This document shows, one piece after another, positions 51,851-64,000 of a stretch of 64,000 bases of DNA; the first letter of the stretch is position 1; the number at the start of each line of letters is the position of its first letter. This DNA is from Negaprion brevirostris (taxonomy: Eukaryota). Both the position numbers and the translations under genes were made by a program. Location: the NCBI GenBank assembly GCA_030324005.1, contig JARDVH010000001.1, positions 89,833,210-89,897,209 of the forward strand. The letters run 5' to 3'. A model generated the notes under the pieces. That model was given only the letters and a program-made list of their open reading frames with translations. It made no database searches and had not been told where the DNA came from.

Positions 51851-51946
<96 letters not shown>

Positions 51947-53979: not shown

Positions 53980-54227
53980 TGATATTTGTCTGGAACTAGA
54001 AAATTGTGATATTTATCTAGAACCACCCAATAGACGGTTAGTTGATTTTGTTTCACCATCTGAAGGAGTTTCCAAACTTTTAATCCTTTGACCTAGAAAC
54101 ATGAGTCTAGATTGGTTGGTCTACCCTACAGCCTTAGAACATCACTGAAATTGTACCGACTGTCGTTCCCTTCAGTGTAATTTTGGTCGTGAGTTTGCAG
54201 CTTTGTCGATTCCCATTTCAGGTTATT

Positions 54228-54580
54228 ATAGAATCCCTACAGTGCAGAACAAGGTTATTCCACCCATCAAGTCTGCACTGACTGAGTACCTAGTATCCTA
54301 CCCAGGCCCCCTCCTCTGCTCTATCCCCCAACTCCACAAATTTACCATGGTTAATTATTCTAATCCTACGCATTTTAGGAACCAAGGGGCAATTTAACAT
54401 GGCCAGTCTACCTAACATGCGCATCTTTGGACTGTGGGAGGAAACCAGAGGAGGAAGCCCGCGTAGACACGGGAAGAATGTGCAAACTCCATAGACAGTG
54501 ACCCAAGGCCAAAAAAGAACTTGGGTCCCTGGTGCTGTGAGGCAGCAATACTAACCATTGTGCTGCTGTGTTGCCCCCTG
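54228..54580 (-). mobile_element. HE1-like SINE
   Basis: atagaatccctacagtgcag...tttggactgtgggaggaaaccagag...ggtccctggtgctgtgaggcagcaatactaaccattgtgctgc. Confidence 0.85.
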
Positions 54581-55124
54581 TCTTCCACAATGCTGGAAAA
54601 TGCATGTGTGTGAATGCCGAATAAGGATGGCATCAGTTGCATTTGTGTTTTGTACATTCCCACCCTGTTCTGGATATTTGCTGTTTACCAAACGGGTGAA
54701 GTACAAAGAAAAGTTTGTGGATTCATCGTTATTCTTTGAATTGAAGAAACCTCTGTATTTTCCACTCATCTAGCTTCTGAACCCCTTTCATTGCCCCTTT
54801 TTGGGTTTGATAGTTTCCTTTGAGAAAAGCGTTGCTGTTGGCTGTGTTTGGGCTGTTTGTGTGTGATATCAGCAAAGGAAGCATCAGGCAAGGTTACCAC
54901 ATCATGAAGAGGTTGTTGAGGGAAATCGACTGTACAGGGCAATCTTGATTCTCTCTTGCAAAGGCAGCCTCTCACAGATAAGTAATTTTCATGAATAATC
55001 CAGTATTAGTTGCTATTTCCTAAGCATGACATGAAATGCAATACCAGTATTTTTAGTTAATTGGTCTACATAATATGGTTTGGTAATCATCTTGGTGTAC
55101 TGTAACTAAATTTGAGGAAGTTTT

Positions 55125-55780
55125 GACCAGACTATTCACAACCTTGGTGTCATAACTGATCCAGATTTAGCTTTTGACCACATAATCGTGCCATCACCAA
55201 AACCCCCTATTCCCAACATTATAGTTTTGCCTGACTATGTCCCTGCCTCTGTTCATCCACTGCTCAAACCCTTATCTATGTTACTTCCAGACTTGTCTAT
55301 TCCANNNNNNNNNNNNNNNNNNNNNNNNNNNNNNNNNNNNNNNNNNNNNNNNNNNNNNNNNNNNNNNNNNNNNNNNNNNNNNNNNNNNNNNNNNNNNNNN
55401 NNNNNNNNNNNNNNNNNNNNNNNNNNNNNNNNNNNNNNNNNNNNNNNNNNNNNNNNNNNNNNNNCAAGTCCCTCCCTGTCTCTGCAATCTTCTCTAGCCT
55501 TCTGAGGTAGCCATGCTCCTCCAATTCTGGCCTCATGAGAATCTGTGGTTTTAATTGCCCCACCATTACCTTTAATTGCATTGGCTTCAAGCTCTTAAAA
55601 CCCCTCTGTCCACTTTTAAGATGGTCTTTAAAACCCATCACTTTAACCAAGTTTTTGGGTCAACTGTGCTAATATCTCTTTGATGTGGTTTGGTGTCAAA
55701 TTGTGTTTTCAACTGCTCCTGTGACGTGCAGTGGGATGTATTATTATGTTAAACATGCTCCAAAAATACGAGTTTTCCAT
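55125..55780 (+). mobile_element. L2-like LINE 3' portion spanning a gap
   Basis: tgttacttccagacttgtctattcc (VTSRL.YS) and the shared L2-type tail. Confidence 0.6.
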
Positions 55781-55851
55781 TTTGTTAATGCAGTGGGAGA
55801 TTATTAACCTTGACATTATTTGAACTTCTATTTACTGTTTTAAATTTTTAG

Positions 55852-56061
<210 letters not shown>

Positions 56062-57089
56062 TGATCTCATTTAAATCTGTCTTGCCCCAGCTTAAGATTG
56101 TTGTTATGTCTACAAAATGTTGATGTTCCTCAGGTTGTTCCAGGGCTTGTGTAATTTACATTCTGCAGTTAGCCTGTTCTAATCTACCATTTGCGATATT
56201 ATAAAAGGATTGCTATATTTGGTCATTTTCTGTTGGAAATCTCTAGGTTATGAAATTGCCATGATAAGACAGGATCTGAGTTTTCTGTGCTTGACGTCTA
56301 AGAGCAGACAGATTTTCCTTCAGTCGTGCCCTGCGATATTTTACATTGACACGAACAGGCATTTGAGACCATGCTTTAATGTTGCGTGTGAAAGTCAGCA
56401 ACTCTTGCAGTGCAAGGTTCACTTAGTGCAGCAGTGAAGTATCAGCCCAGTTAATGTGTTGCATCTTTTGAAGTGGGCCAAACTGACTGTTTTAACCTGA
56501 ATTGAGAGTACCACCATTGAGCCCTGTGGACACTTCAGGTTAATAACACCAGCAGAATACTGAGAAAAGAAGGTTGAATAAAACTGCAGCATTTACTGGA
56601 AATTGGCAGTTGGTTTATTTTTCAGTTTGCTAAAGCTGGAAGTAACTTCTGTGGCCAGTTAAATTTTCAACCCTGAAGTCATAACATGCTCTATATGTAG
56701 AGCAAAAGGTTTCCAAAAATCTAGGCATGTGTTTGTATTTTGTAAAAGTGAGTCTGATGCATGGACAGGAAAGCAGCAATGATTGATGCTATACATTGCT
56801 CTCTTGTTGGCAGAATATATTGCTGTTAAAGTAAAAGCTCCCTTATCAATTTTTTTACATTCTTTTCCCCTGTTCTATTTGATGTGATTATTTGTTCTTA
56901 CGTCTTGAAAATTATTTGGACAGCAGCAGACATTGCTGAAAGGATATTATTCACTTCATGTCAGTTAAATTACATTGTTTGTGTTGGCACGAATGGTTTT
57001 GGGTTCAGATTGGCAAAAGACGATGTAGTCTAATTTAGATGTCAAGTTGCCTAAATTGAATTCAGGAGAAAGATGACACCACATTGTAA

Positions 57090-57524
<435 letters not shown>

Positions 57525-58627
57525 TAATGTTATATTTGAATGGTTATGGAAAATAGTGAAGTTTTGAGAACATTTTGAACTGAAGAATGTACAAGCTCAA
57601 GCAATTAATTCTGATTACAATTTTCCAGGTTTGATGCTTAATTTCAGGTATTTTTTAACCATTTTTAACATTTTATTCTGCCCGTAAATCACTTCTGTTC
57701 AAGCAGATATCTAGTAAAGGAGGAAAGTTTTTAATGAAGGGGAGATGTTGATGAATATCAAGACTGCTCAGCATTGTTAGGTTTACATTCTGTGCACAAG
57801 AAACTAATTTTCACCCCAGTCTTAGAATTTCATTGTAGAGAAATAATTATGCACTCCTACTCCCCAGGATCCAGACAGACAAAATATTTTGAATTTCCTA
57901 ATAGGCTAAAAGATAATGAAGACTTGTGTTAAATCTTAAAGTATTTGTGTAATTTAGCTACTAAAAGTAACATGGTTTGGCAGTTTACATTATTTTACTG
58001 TATCCCTTTGGCAGAGATGGGCGACACTAATGTTTGTTGTAACCCGAATATTGGTCATTAATTTAGGTAACTTGTGGTTTTGTATTTCATTAATAATCCT
58101 GATTCTACCCTGTATAATGCCTATACAAAACCATTAATGGGCTAATTACATTTTTGTAAGTAATGTTTAGCGAGGCGGCAGACTTGAACTGTGTCAGTAC
58201 AGTACTATAGATTAAATCAGATTCAGAGCAGCTGGGCAGGGCAGAGTTTCACCCTTGCTTCCTTTTTGTTCTTCCTGGGTTTTTAAACCTGTTTGCAAGG
58301 GTGAGATTCAAGTCATCTATTGTACGTTTCAAATACTAAACGTTTTACAGTTACATGTATCTTCAGGTTAGGAAAATGCTTGCAGAAGGCATTCAGTTAA
58401 TACATGATAATAGTTCTGTATTGCCCTATGCACCGCCTTTTTCACTAAAATTTGGTAATTGTGTAGCTTCTGAAACACTCTTGTCTTGCAGATGTGAGTA
58501 GGTGTTGATGTTTGGTACCAAGCCAAGGTAGTAGACAGTCCAAGATGCAGTTGGTGACCATGTCCCATCATGCCCTGCCCAATGCTCTCTGAACTGACCT
58601 AGCTAGGCCTTGTTCCTGTGTCTGTGA

Positions 58628-58810
<183 letters not shown>

Positions 58811-60039
58811 TAATTTTCTGAATTCCCATTTATCAAGGGCAGATTTTCAGATGGGCTTGATTTGTGGATATACACAACATTGTACAAGCTCCTGAATATT
58901 GAGCTTCAGCATACTCATCTGAGAATTGTTCACCAAGGATTTGCTATGCAGCTGTTCCTGTGCATGTTTTTATTATTTAAAGAGGTCTTCATACGAACAT
59001 AGCTGCAAGTCAAAGCCAAATGCTGGCCCAAATTTATATTGACATTTTGGTTTTAAATTACTGATCGTACAGGACTGTCGACAGTCAATCCTTATTGTCT
59101 TAATAATATGCTCTACCCTCTAAGACTAGCTTGTAAATGTACTTTGTGGCTTTTTCATGATGTATTTTATGCTGTTAAAGACAGTCACAGTGGACTAAGC
59201 TGCAACAGATTCAGAGGGAACAATCGAAAGTGGTATTGCAACATCCAAGCTTATGTGTTCATTTGCCTGAAAAACATTAATGTGATATTTCCACCATTTA
59301 AGAATTTGCAACAATTTTAGTATCAAAATGTCAAACTCTAGAAAGCACAGTCACTAAATTACAGCATTTGTTTCCATTATTTGGGAGGAGAAATCCTGCA
59401 GAGGGAGGATGTCACTTGTAAACAATTTAATATAAATTCAAAAATCAATAAGTTCTTTATATCTATCTGCTTCAATCTTTAAACTCTGTGCAGGAGGAGA
59501 TGCAAGTAATTCTAGGACATCTTTGTTTCCCAATTATAATTATACTCTTCAGATTTGTTATCAGTTTTCTTTCAGTACATAACCTTTGAATTCTCATTAG
59601 ACAGCCAGAAAGGAACAAGTAGCTGAATAGCTATACTTCCTGCATTCTAATTTGTAAAGGGAATAGTGTCTGAAGCTGTAGCTAGGACATTCATAATGGG
59701 GTGAACGAGGAATGTTTTTCTTAGGCTTATGTGCTGCATAAGGATATGCAGTTAATAGTTAGAAACCACTAGCTGGATTTTGGGCTCTCAACTGGGTGGT
59801 ACTCCTACTTGGTGGCTTATTGGTTGGAACTTTAGATATCATGCATTGGGGTGAGTTCTACACAAGCCTGGATTCACAGTTGCATGCACCTATGAGGAGG
59901 AACACTTGACGGGCATGAGAATTAGAAAATTTTAAATCCATGTTGCCCAATCTTTAGTGCATTCAAATAATTGGATACAAGTCTGTGGATCTGTGATAAA
60001 CTCCGATCAAAATGGCTTATTGACTGAGCAACAGCCTGC

Positions 60040-60480
60040 ACATTTGCACAGCACCTTTTACTGTGCACATCATTCTGACGCTGTACTAACATGTCACATA
60101 AAATTTAGACAGTAAACCAAAGGATGAAACATAATAGTCTTTAAAATGGAGGGGAAAGGAGGTGATATTACTGAGAAAATTCTAGGGTGTGTAATGTCAG
60201 ATAAACAATTCAACAGCACAGAGGCAGCAGGAGGGTGGAGATGAGTTGGAGAGGGGGAGAACCAGGTGTCGTTGGTGTACACGTACAAGTTTTGTCCTCA
60301 ATATGTTATCCTGGCGCAGTTCACAGCTGAGGAAATGGAGGATATCAAGGATATTGATTTGACTGAGGGAGGTGGAAGGGCTCGTTGTGCTTGCAAAAGT
60401 ACTAATTTGGGAACTGAGACATGGCCAATGGTACAATAGCTGTGATTTAATAGGTAGGAGTGGAAGAAAGAGCAAGGCTA
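60040..60480 (-). mobile_element. Decayed L2-like RT fragment
   Basis: Minus ORF YVYTNDTWFSPS resembles the YADDTQLY motif; LNCLSDI follows it. Confidence 0.5.
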
Positions 60481-61675
60481 TTAGTATTGAAATTGTACAA
60501 CAATCTTCTTAATTTGAATTGTGGTTAATTTAAAATTTGTTATTTGATTCAAATATATTTTAAAGAGATGGCTACTTTTCCTCATGCTAACTCTTACAAA
60601 GCTTTAGGATCCCAAAATGATCGGGTTAGAAAGTTCATTTCATTCCACCAAATGGATTCCCCACATCCCCTCCCCATGAAATTCCCAATTATTGCTTCCA
60701 GTCTTAATTTCAACTCGATTCATTGTCATAGAATCCCGACAGTGCAGAAGGAGACCCATTCAGCCTGTACTGACAACAATCCTACCCTATCTCCATTGTG
60801 TAGTTCTCGTTGTCCAGATCGTCACTATGATTCCAAATGGCTTTTGAAGTCCATTCTGAAAACTGAATGCTGCAACTTGGGGCAAACAGAAACTACTCAT
60901 TAGGTCAGTCGACATCTGAAAGAAAGATGGATGAATTTATGCAAAGTATTCCAGAAAGATTCCACCCAGAATATTTCCTTTTTAGAGGTATCCATCACCT
61001 GCTATCCATATCCAGTACTTTTGTTTTTTTATTCTGTAAGCATGTCACTTCGTTTACCTCCTTTAGGTCTAGATTACTGTTATGAATTTTAAATTGATTA
61101 TTCATTGCTGTTTGAATGACTTGGATGGTTTAATTATAAAAACCCAACGTTACACAGTGAAACAGTGCAAGTAACTAAATAGAGTCACATTTCCTTTTTA
61201 GCAAACAAAACATTTGAATGGCAGCTTGGCCCATTGGCAGCACACACACTGAATCCGAAGGTTATTCAAATTCTACTCCAGGGGCTTGTGAAAGTAATCA
61301 AGGTTAATATTTTACAGCAGTAGTGAGTGAATGTTGCATTGTCAGAAATTTCTTCTTTTTGAATGAGATGCTTAATCAAGAATGTTTGGTTGCAGAGGAG
61401 GGAGGGGAATTATTTGTTAAAATCCTACAGAACTAGCAAGAAAAGCTATGTTCTTTGCTGTCCTGATCAGCATTTATTGTTCAGTCTGTTTTGTGGTAAT
61501 GTCCTTGGCTAGTTGAATGCACTCTCTTAAGAGTCGGAATGTCAAGAGAGTAATCCATATTGTGGATATGAGCAGCAAAATCTAGGTTACATTATTGTGA
61601 CTGTGGCACACTGTTGGGCATGCTGAAAACCTGTTGCCCTAGCCACTATTCATCCCTCTGCCAACACCACCAAAA

Positions 61676-61847
61676 TAAGAACTCTCAACTTCAGGTTAAA
61701 GTCTAACAGGTTTATTTGGCAGCACTAGCTTTCGGAGTCTCAAGCTCTGAAAGCTAGTGCTGCCAAATTAACCTGTTGGACTTAACCTGATGTTGTGAGA
61801 CTTCTTGCTGTGCTTACCCAGTCCAATGCCAGCATCTCCACCTCATG
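61676..61847. mobile_element. Penelope-like inverted pLTR insertion with a 13-bp target-site duplication
   Basis: Inverted arms about 61683-61737 and 61745-61800, flanked by aacaccaccaaaa at 61663-61675 and 61848-61860. Confidence 0.7.
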
Positions 61848-62013
61848 AACACCACCAAAAACAGATTACCTAGTAAGTTATTTCCAATGTGGTTTAACTG
61901 GGGCATTGTAAATGACTTCTACCTCTTTGTACTCTAATCATCTAGAGATAAATGGCAGCACTACAGTGGCTTTTTTCAGTTATTGTTTGGACCTGTCTGT
62001 AACATTTTAATCG

Positions 62014-62490
62014 TAGAATCTTGCAGTGCAGAAGGAGGCCATTCGGGTAGGATTGTTGTCAGTACAGGCTCGATAGCTGAATGGGTCTCCTCCTGCACTG
62101 TTGGAATTCTGTGACTAAATGAATCGAGTTAAAATTAAGATTGGAAGCAATAATGGTAATTTCATGGGGAGGGGATGTGGGGAATCCATTCGGTGAAGTG
62201 AAATGAAATGAACCTTCTAACCTGATCATTTTGGGATCAAGTCTGCACCGACCACAATCCCACCCAAGCCCTATCCCCATAACCTCATACATTTACCATA
62301 GCTAGCTCCCCAACACTAGGGGGCAATTTAGCATGGCCAATTCACCTAACTGTCATATCTTTGGGCTGTGGAAGGAAACCAGAGCATCCGAAGGAAACCC
62401 ACACAGACAGTGACCCAAGCTGGGATTTAAACCTGGGGCCCTGACACTGTGAGTCAGCAGTGCTAACCACTCTGTCAATGTGCCGCCCTA
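62014..62490 (-). mobile_element. HE1-like SINE interrupted by an inverted local duplication (62045-62238)
   Basis: SINE tail at 62014-62044; the body resumes at 62239 (aagtctgcaccgaccacaatcccaccc) and runs to tgctaaccactctgtcaatgtgccgccc. Confidence 0.8.
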
Positions 62491-63180
62491 ATGACCTACG
62501 TATCTGGACGGTCAAGTCTTTTTGGACCATTATTTCTAGTTTTTCATCGTTTAGAAAGTATTGACATTTTTTCTTTGTAGATCTAAATGTGACCTGACTC
62601 TTGCCTACATGAAATCCATTCATTGCCAGTTTGTCCATTCATTTAATCTATTAATATCACATTGTAATTTTATGCTTTCTTCTACCTTTTGTGTCATTTG
62701 CAAACTTGATAATGTGACTCCATATCCTACTATCTAAGTTGGTAAGAAATACAATGAATGGTGGTTGAGGCCCCAACAATCTATAAGTAATATTGCAATT
62801 TAAATTTTTGAGTTGACTTAAAACTTAAATGTTATGATTTACGTTTATTGTAACAAGTGCAAATCAAGAAAAAGTTTCAACTGATTCATAGCACTGATCT
62901 TTTGGACAATTGCCAATTGCCAATATCTTTGTCACAGGAACTAGAAGCAGGAGAGGTCATCCAGTCCTTCAAGGCTGTTCCGCTGCATTCTTTGTAATCA
63001 TGGCTGATGATCAAATTCAGTGTCCTGATCTCTTCCCCAACCCCCCTCCTCGCCCTCATTGTTTGATCTCTTTTGCCTCGTGCTATATCTAATTTCTTCT
63101 TGAAATCGGACAGTATTTTGGTCTCGTCCACTTTGGTAGTGAATTCCACAGAGTCTCCGCTGTCTGGGTGCATTTTATTC
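62490..63180 (-). mobile_element. CR1 fragments (62490-62780 and 62935-63180)
   Basis: tttgtgtcatttgcaaactt is the reverse complement of KFANDTK; gaactagaagcaggagaggtcatccagtcc is a CR1 tail; minus ORF contains FKKKLD. Confidence 0.7.
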
Positions 63181-64000
63181 ATTTCACGTTGGCCATCTAG
63201 CACGAGCTTAGCCTGGATTGATGAGTTCTGAAGACACTATGTGCTGATAATGCACTGTGTTTTGATGTTGTAGATTAATGGTGCTACTGTGGTCTTTGCC
63301 ACTGAGACCTAGGAATTATACCATTCTGCCAATCCATTGTTTACCTTGATGGTTTAATGGTTACATTGGACCTTGAACACAGCAAAAAGTTTAGGACCAG
63401 TTCTTCAGCCTCTAAAGAAGGCATTAGGTAGTCTCAGAATGTTGACCATTTGATCTTTCTAGTCCGTCAATGATTTTTATGCTTTTTAGTTGCCGTATTC
63501 CCCCGTGGTGTTAATGCTGGGCATCAAAACAGGCTGTCATTTCCAAGAGATATGTAAAAACAGGAAGAAAAAGCCCATCCTTTTATTCACAAGGTAGTAT
63601 CATAATCCGATCATTTATTCCCTAAGCAGTGATATAAGGAATAAAGAGCAGATTGAAATAAATGGGATTGTAAATGTAAAAGGAATAAAACAAATTTTAA
63701 ATTTAGCTCTCTGGGTCCTAGGCCTTTGTTATACAATATATCCTTTGGCCCTGTCCCAGATGATACATTACAGGCATCAAAAACAAATCTAGCACTATAT
63801 TCTTTAAATACATTGGAAAAATTCACACTCGTTGCAGATGATCATCATATAAGTGTTGCACCACGTTTCCTGCAACATTCGGAACAAAATAGATGAGCTT
63901 AGAAAGCTGAAGAATCCAACAATACCCAGTCTGTCGGTTGATGGCTTCTGGGTTCAGGAGTTGGGTATTTCATTGCATTTGTGGAGGCATTTTGTTTTTC

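Follow-up and report, generated by a model that had tools for sequence, protein, structure and literature searches.

DHX15 is the enzyme that discards faulty spliceosomes. Conserved poison exons occur in the genes of SR proteins, SNRPB and SNRNP70; in the open-access literature searched, there is no description of how the level of DHX15 is held and no report of self-regulation of DHX15/PRP43 or of an element such as the one discussed here, and published surveys may list the intron. Introns repressed by human DHX15 combine weak sites with multiple, distally placed branch points, and depletion of the enzyme increases cryptic splicing (10.1101/2022.11.14.516533); the main text of that study does not mention self-regulation of DHX15. 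More generally, DHX15 determines how speed is traded against fidelity in splicing, and it has ties to SF3B1/SUGP1 missplicing and to AML mutations (PMC9894173; 10.1101/2022.11.14.516533).

Negative feedback of a helicase through a structured 3' splice site has already been proposed for the plant gene DRH1/RH46, the closest known system to DHX15 intron 10 as a possible self-proofreading intron. In this RNA-helicase gene, an intronic structure located at a 3' splice site, the DEAD motif, is proposed to sense helicase activity and to exert negative feedback via unproductive splicing; it belongs to a DEAD-box gene, is confined to land plants, and its 20-bp stem hides the unproductive site and is unwound (10.64898/2026.01.23.701338; PMC12218528). 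DHX15, in contrast, is a DEAH-box proofreading helicase; its predicted stem is short, lies at the productive site and is spread among bilaterians, and sensing would go by spliceosome discard. With its predicted 7-bp stem, productive site and DEAH-box gene, intron 10 may work like the DEAD-motif type without being a member of it; the one supplementary file of PMC12218528 contains no match to DHX15.

Three further systems bear comparison. The poison exon of SMNDC1/SPF30, conserved in mammals and plants, likewise concerns a core spliceosome gene, a candidate unproductive event and the same intron in animals and plants (PMC11357089), but at DHX15 the comparison yielded no conserved stop-bearing cassette, the conserved animal feature is a constitutive acceptor, and the plant cassette is in frame in five of seven loci; in the supplement of PMC11357089, file 13 being outside the search, the sole DHX15 row is a tandem-UTR event. 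Decoy exons, as in SF3B1 intron 4, OGT, ARGLU1 and DDX39B, lie in introns of more than 1 kb in which several cryptic sites, both 3' and 5', compete (PMC6097662). DHX15 intron 10 is also longer than 1 kb, contains multiple competing internal splice sites and shows indirect signs of retention in relatives; the described decoys are highly conserved and backed by junction and U2AF evidence (PMC6097662), and the shark cluster is a candidate read from the sequence. Finally, intron 10 resembles the DHX15/SUGP1-repressed introns and the distant-branch exons in that its acceptor is weak, its branch candidates lie at -44 and -86, and its AG-free zone measures 48 nt in the shark; those sources describe classes (10.1101/2022.11.14.516533; PMC1431707). 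A human table of pre-translational mRNPs holds one DHX15 event, a 19.8-kb exon skip, which because of its size is taken not to be intron 10 (PMC8091538 supplement).

The gene and its productive intron 10 acceptor

The window, a 64,000-nt stretch of Negaprion brevirostris DNA, encodes a cartilaginous-fish-like DHX15 with 95-96% identity to tetrapod proteins and a tree position basal to bony vertebrates. Spliced alignment to mammalian DHX15 gave 12 introns from exon 2 onward. On the plus strand, exon 10 (57202..57393) runs to reference residue 595 and closes in phase 1; intron 10 (57394..58682) comprises 1289 nt in phase 1, and exon 11 (58683..58805) has 123 nt and phases 1-1. Skipping of exon 11 is therefore in frame and invisible to NMD, an outcome that, like the weakness of the productive acceptor, is absent from the first-pass annotation. 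In the same alignment, introns 7 and 8 (window positions 51938 and 53920) begin with GC instead of GT and thus represent further non-standard sites in the proofreading helicase's own gene. Neither the window at 54000-64000 nor 12 orthologous loci match an Rfam family at gathering score, and three sub-threshold matches within 54000-64000 all lie outside intron 10; a snoRNA or other Rfam RNA inside the intron was rejected on these grounds. A palindromic hairpin at 61694-61786 has sub-threshold matches to microRNA families and forms part of a repeat that is present several times in the window; it is probably a small transposon.

The productive acceptor of exon 11 (58663..58682, plus strand) is the lowest-scoring of the 12 DHX15 acceptors, its leave-one-out score being 0.0 compared to 2.4-12.0 for the other 11, on small mixed-species matrices that here and below take the place of MaxEntScan. 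Its tract is also the poorest in the gene, with nine T in -30..-4 (11-19 elsewhere). An acceptor comparison including the exon side was discarded in favour of intron-only scoring, since its p=6e-8 is inflated by a codon-fixed T at +1. The nearest branch-point candidate in a motif scan is 58636..58640 on the plus strand (A at 58639), a further upstream candidate is a CTRAY match, and branching is predicted about 44 nt or more upstream of the acceptor. In place of a U-rich tract, the intron end has a predicted 7-bp stem-loop (58644..58668, plus strand; arms 58644-58650 and 58662-58668), which carries a TGGRC…GYCC core. The core has a predicted pairing probability of 0.82 with exon context and 0.22 without, since the sequence can also adopt an alternative fold. 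Over its last 60 nt the intron end is richer in GC than the rest of the intron (0.47 vs 0.36) and has the most stable fold of the 12 (-14.9 kcal/mol); the z-score against shuffles is -0.35 to -0.8. The AG-free zone is not extreme in this gene (22-50 nt).

The same intron in other animals and in plants

The position of intron 10 is common to invertebrate and land-plant DHX15/PRP43 genes and to a shark paralogue. A metagenome scan with exon 10 as query provided 80 loci, none of them vertebrate. An intron of the same codon position and phase is present in 34, out of the 50 loci with any detected intron. The carriers are cnidarian-, tunicate-, mollusc-, annelid- and arthropod-like genes as well as land plants, where placement is by protein similarity and several assignments are weakly supported. 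Fourteen loci (L012, L015, L020 and plant loci) have this position without the neighbouring one at about residue 531, and four show the reverse; several loci are redundant. In the shark's own genome, two DHX15 paralogues, presumably DHX32/DQX1-like, are 66% and 61% identical over exon 10 and share the intron position. In one, the intron has about 560 nt, an ordinary U-rich end and no TGGRC…GYCC motif; for the other, the next exon was not located in a stretch containing 7,458 N. Linear similarity between shark intron 10 and the fetched orthologous introns of invertebrates and plants was not found (best blastn E 0.079).

For the animals, 14 introns with complete 3' ends were compared (13 loci and the shark), leaving aside L048 and L069 with introns below 60 nt, the near-duplicates L024/L025 and loci lacking the intron 3' end; the numbers of control introns (50, 52 or 55) differ by minimum-length filter. 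The acceptor of this intron scores lower than those of other introns (4.85, n=14, vs 6.7, n=55; p=0.008), and its AG-free zone is longer (59 vs 34 nt, 14 vs 50 introns). Compared to 52 other introns of the same genes, the last 60 nt are GC-rich (0.51 vs 0.34) and fold more stably (-15.4 vs -7.2 kcal/mol, p=7e-4; mean z-score -0.51 vs 0.13). Within genes, the end of intron 10 ranks first in fold stability in eight of 11 multi-intron loci, where 2.7 would be expected (P=0.0007). Individual z-scores are modest (-2.2 to +0.75), so the stability of the intron ends is largely a matter of GC content. RNAalifold found no consensus structure in an alignment of 10 animal intron ends, and the accessibility of the last 20 nt and AG is not reduced relative to controls (8.0 vs 7.9, p=0.67).

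A core of the form TGGRC-N4-30-GYCC, with its last base 13-28 nt from the end of the intron, occurs in eight of the 14 animal introns and in none of the 52 others, the motif having been defined post hoc from the same sequences. Shuffles give an expectation of 0.21, and at other shark intronic YAGs the motif occurs four times in 2,226; with the shark removed and sister loci merged, the counts are 5/11 vs 0/41 (p=0.0002). One pair of the core covaries, the third, which is G-C, G-U or A-U depending on the locus, and the core is predicted to pair with a probability of at least 0.82 in six of the eight carriers (0.53 and 0.18 in the remaining two). Carriers group near vertebrate, bivalve, annelid and arthropod proteins. 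The motif is absent in the other six animal loci: the cnidarian-like L007, the tunicate-like L008 and L012, and L015, L036 and L041. In the deep-branching locus L069, the intron at residue 595 has 59 nt and folds over its tract along its whole length (z -1.3), the other two introns of that locus having z-scores of 0.5 and -0.2.

None of seven plant loci (L066, L067, L072, L076, L081, L084, L085) has the animal motif. Flowering-plant PRP43/DEAH2 genes have an element of their own, which occupies the final ~230 nt of this intron. Over the last 90 nt, identity among the six loci compared, from grass to eudicots, is 0.77-0.93, as against 0.47-0.68 for other plant introns in the same comparison. 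A strict branch motif lies at -43 to -48. In six of the seven loci, a cryptic acceptor at -190 to -198 opens a cassette of 66 nt, which is in frame and stop-free in five of the seven. The upstream acceptor lies at a similar distance in the shark (191 nt), which may be a coincidence, since the invertebrate candidates lie at 249-273 nt. The plant element is predicted to be closed by a stem, which is kept even in loci without the donor; an Rfam scan of four loci gave no match to the element, and RNAalifold reports no covariation term in the plant alignment. Gene predictors often draw the element into proteins. Among 117 new proteins from the plant search, 79 are canonical at the intron 10 junction, five skip the next exon in frame (Ipomoea, three from Musa, Camellia), 31 deviate and two lack the search motif; the deviating proteins change at or just after the junction, mostly by predicted inserts from the element. 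For Arabidopsis At3g62310, one alternative acceptor is listed in PMC545797, where the intron is unnamed.

Database proteins provide an indirect sign of what happens at this intron, given that contig ends and gene predictions can create read-through. A set of 156 further proteins comprises 139 canonical ones, two that skip exon 11 (platypus and Xenopus), eight that read from exon 10 into the intron (four Logan and four fish UniRef entries), two with trivial differences and five without the motif. Skips of other vertebrate exons are as common or more so (six and four vs the two of exon 11). In the first set examined, no Logan-only protein ended at introns 11-13, in a search biased against ends at intron 9. 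Of 11 Logan-only members of an oyster cluster, eight read into intron 10 after an unbroken frame spanning residues 115-595; judging from the bivalve-like L035, the oyster gene probably has upstream introns. Among 105 proteins from 10 clusters that have full-length representatives, read-through in spliced form occurs once at intron 10 and twice at the previous intron, the latter in mussel records. Read-through records thus come from oyster, tetrapod-like and fish entries and none from the shark, while rotifer-like, appendicularian-like and plant proteins of this kind were discounted as probably genomic. Sequencing runs presumed to be RNA contain 0.40-0.74 of the words of 57150-58850 and carry no weight here in either direction. 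Taken together, these indirect signs from proteins point to retention of intron 10 and do not show it to be particular to this intron.

A possible self-test through spliceosome discard

The analysis shifts the weight within the intron from 58330-58533 to 58636-58682. With even chances, in our estimate, this old intron, with its weak acceptor and predicted stem, is a self-test by which DHX15 limits its own output through its own proofreading. Spliceosomes would assemble slowly on the structured acceptor of intron 10, and slow assembly would make the intron a substrate for discard in proportion to DHX15/SUGP1 activity. At high DHX15, the intron would be retained, exon 11 skipped in frame, or splicing diverted to the stronger acceptors upstream (58491, 58366), in each case with no working enzyme as the result; at low DHX15, the intron would be spliced. 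Negative feedback by a helicase of this kind requires that the productive site be the poor one, and the bottom rank of acceptor 58682 in the shark gene fits. The wider claim is more tentative, and we would not bet on it at evens: that the feedback intron is as old as the animal-plant split, the helicase metering itself by spliceosome discard on its own poor, structured acceptor, with a stem-loop in bilaterians and a separate element in flowering plants.

Alternatively, the conserved stem and the weak acceptor may tune or limit splicing with a sensor other than DHX15, which we regard as unlikely but worth weighing. The stem may shorten the distance from branch to AG, its G runs may bind factors of the hnRNP F/H type, or another cue may be read, such as temperature, light/TOR or the state of SF3B1/U2AF. 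All conservation results fit this reading equally well; Arabidopsis PRP43b is among 18 light-regulated splicing targets, event and intron being unspecified in the source (PMC8547716), and distant-branch exons often bear regulatory elements (PMC1431707). A stem that purely promotes splicing, however, leaves unexplained why the site is weak in many phyla when the paralogue has an ordinary tract, and does not account for the read-through and skip isoforms.

The upstream cryptic sites and the meaning of the intron

The first-pass annotation had placed a possible control point in a cluster of cryptic splice signals at 58330-58533, a poison cassette through which DHX15 could sense its own activity. 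That the main control lies here, in a poison or decoy cassette conserved among vertebrates like those of SF3B1 intron 4, OGT and SNRNP70, seems improbable to us. Every splice motif named for the cluster is present where it was placed, but their strengths vary. The acceptor at 58491 (58472..58491, plus strand) is as strong as had been said: with an intron-side score of 9.4, it lies above nine of the 11 other real shark acceptors and far from the 0.0 of the real one 191 nt downstream. Splicing to it would give a stop after five codons, and it is a candidate competitor, decoy or poison outlet. The remaining candidate acceptors, both within 58349..58372 (plus strand), are weaker, 58366 being moderate (5.6) and 58350 weak (3.6); this stretch also holds an AG/GT donor at 58367 (9.9). 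The donors of the candidate 2-nt and 36-nt cassettes (58492..58533, plus strand) are weak, the one at 58494, called perfect, scoring 2.2 and that at 58528 scoring 4.1 against a training median of 7.8. The branch-point-like site (58334..58341, plus strand) exists but is one base off the TACTAAC consensus, and its enrichment is not beyond doubt (TACTAA occurs twice in intron 10 and 15 times in other introns). Outside the cluster, intron 10 holds two further AG/GT sites (57628 and 57647, within 57610-57655) and a strong-looking donor near 58157.

Two arguments that had been drawn from the cluster lose force against controls. All seven enumerated acceptor-donor combinations do lead to a premature stop or a frameshift, but among cryptic cassettes taken as controls from the remaining 11 introns, 211 of 234 do so too, so non-productivity is the default and the argument weak. 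As to the lack of a recognisable transposon, the intron is single-copy in an own-genome search, subject to the caveat of that tool, and without self-repeat; intron 9 is free of self-repeats too, and given how dense repeats are in the window, a stretch as long as this one would be free of them with P≈0.43. More in favour of the cassette are two rare micro-patterns, both defined post hoc: a pyrimidine tract with YAG and, within at most 5 nt, GTRAG occurs once in intron 10 and once in all other introns together (11 introns, 69,070 nt), and YYYNYAG/GTDAG once and not at all, respectively. Matrix-defined cassettes are also denser in intron 10 (four in 1,189 nt vs 65 in 68,630 nt), one of the four touching the cluster, and are found in six of 13 invertebrate orthologous introns compared to three of 36 controls; competing sites of this sort are, moreover, typical of decoys in retained introns of more than 1 kb (PMC6097662). 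Against it, no cassette position common to the invertebrates was found. By-eye micro-cassettes in L030, L035 and L041 were rejected (one in 6,056 nt vs three in 20,161 nt). No tail matching the shark cassettes occurred among the database proteins examined, and the teleost insert P0117 and other protein tails failed to map to the shark intron. DHX15 is absent from the supplement text searched for PMC6097662 (four of five files) and PMC6547761 (one file).

The sign of the proposed loop is a further obstacle: as DHX15 represses cryptic and suboptimal splicing, its repression of a poison exon in its own gene would be positive feedback, so that the sign known from the literature argues against a cassette simply repressed by DHX15 (10.1101/2022.11.14.516533). 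Regulation of DHX15 expression at intron 10, as a broad idea, gains support from the comparisons across phyla and plants and from database isoforms; a conserved cassette cluster gains none from them. Under the self-test by discard, the cluster at 58330-58533 would be a vertebrate outlet or decoy of the switch and not its sensor. That nothing here is functional, with chance cryptic sites in an AT-rich intron, a drifted GC-rich end and an over-fitted post-hoc motif, is very improbable: the modest z-scores, the lack of alignment-level structure, the limitation to 14 loci and the general lack of conservation of cryptic sites (10.1101/2025.07.16.665169) speak for it, but the motif's absence from all 52 controls at so low an expectation, the within-gene rank of fold stability and a plant conservation far above that of other introns speak against it.

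If the self-test is real, this single intron would serve as a natural reporter of how active splicing fidelity control is, and the feedback loop would sense catalytic quality control and not RNA binding. Compensation would then be expected after knockdown or inhibition of DHX15, together with an in-frame isoform lacking 41 residues, and the effect would be readable in existing RNA-seq data from DHX15-degron, SUGP1-knockdown and SF3B1-mutant cells.
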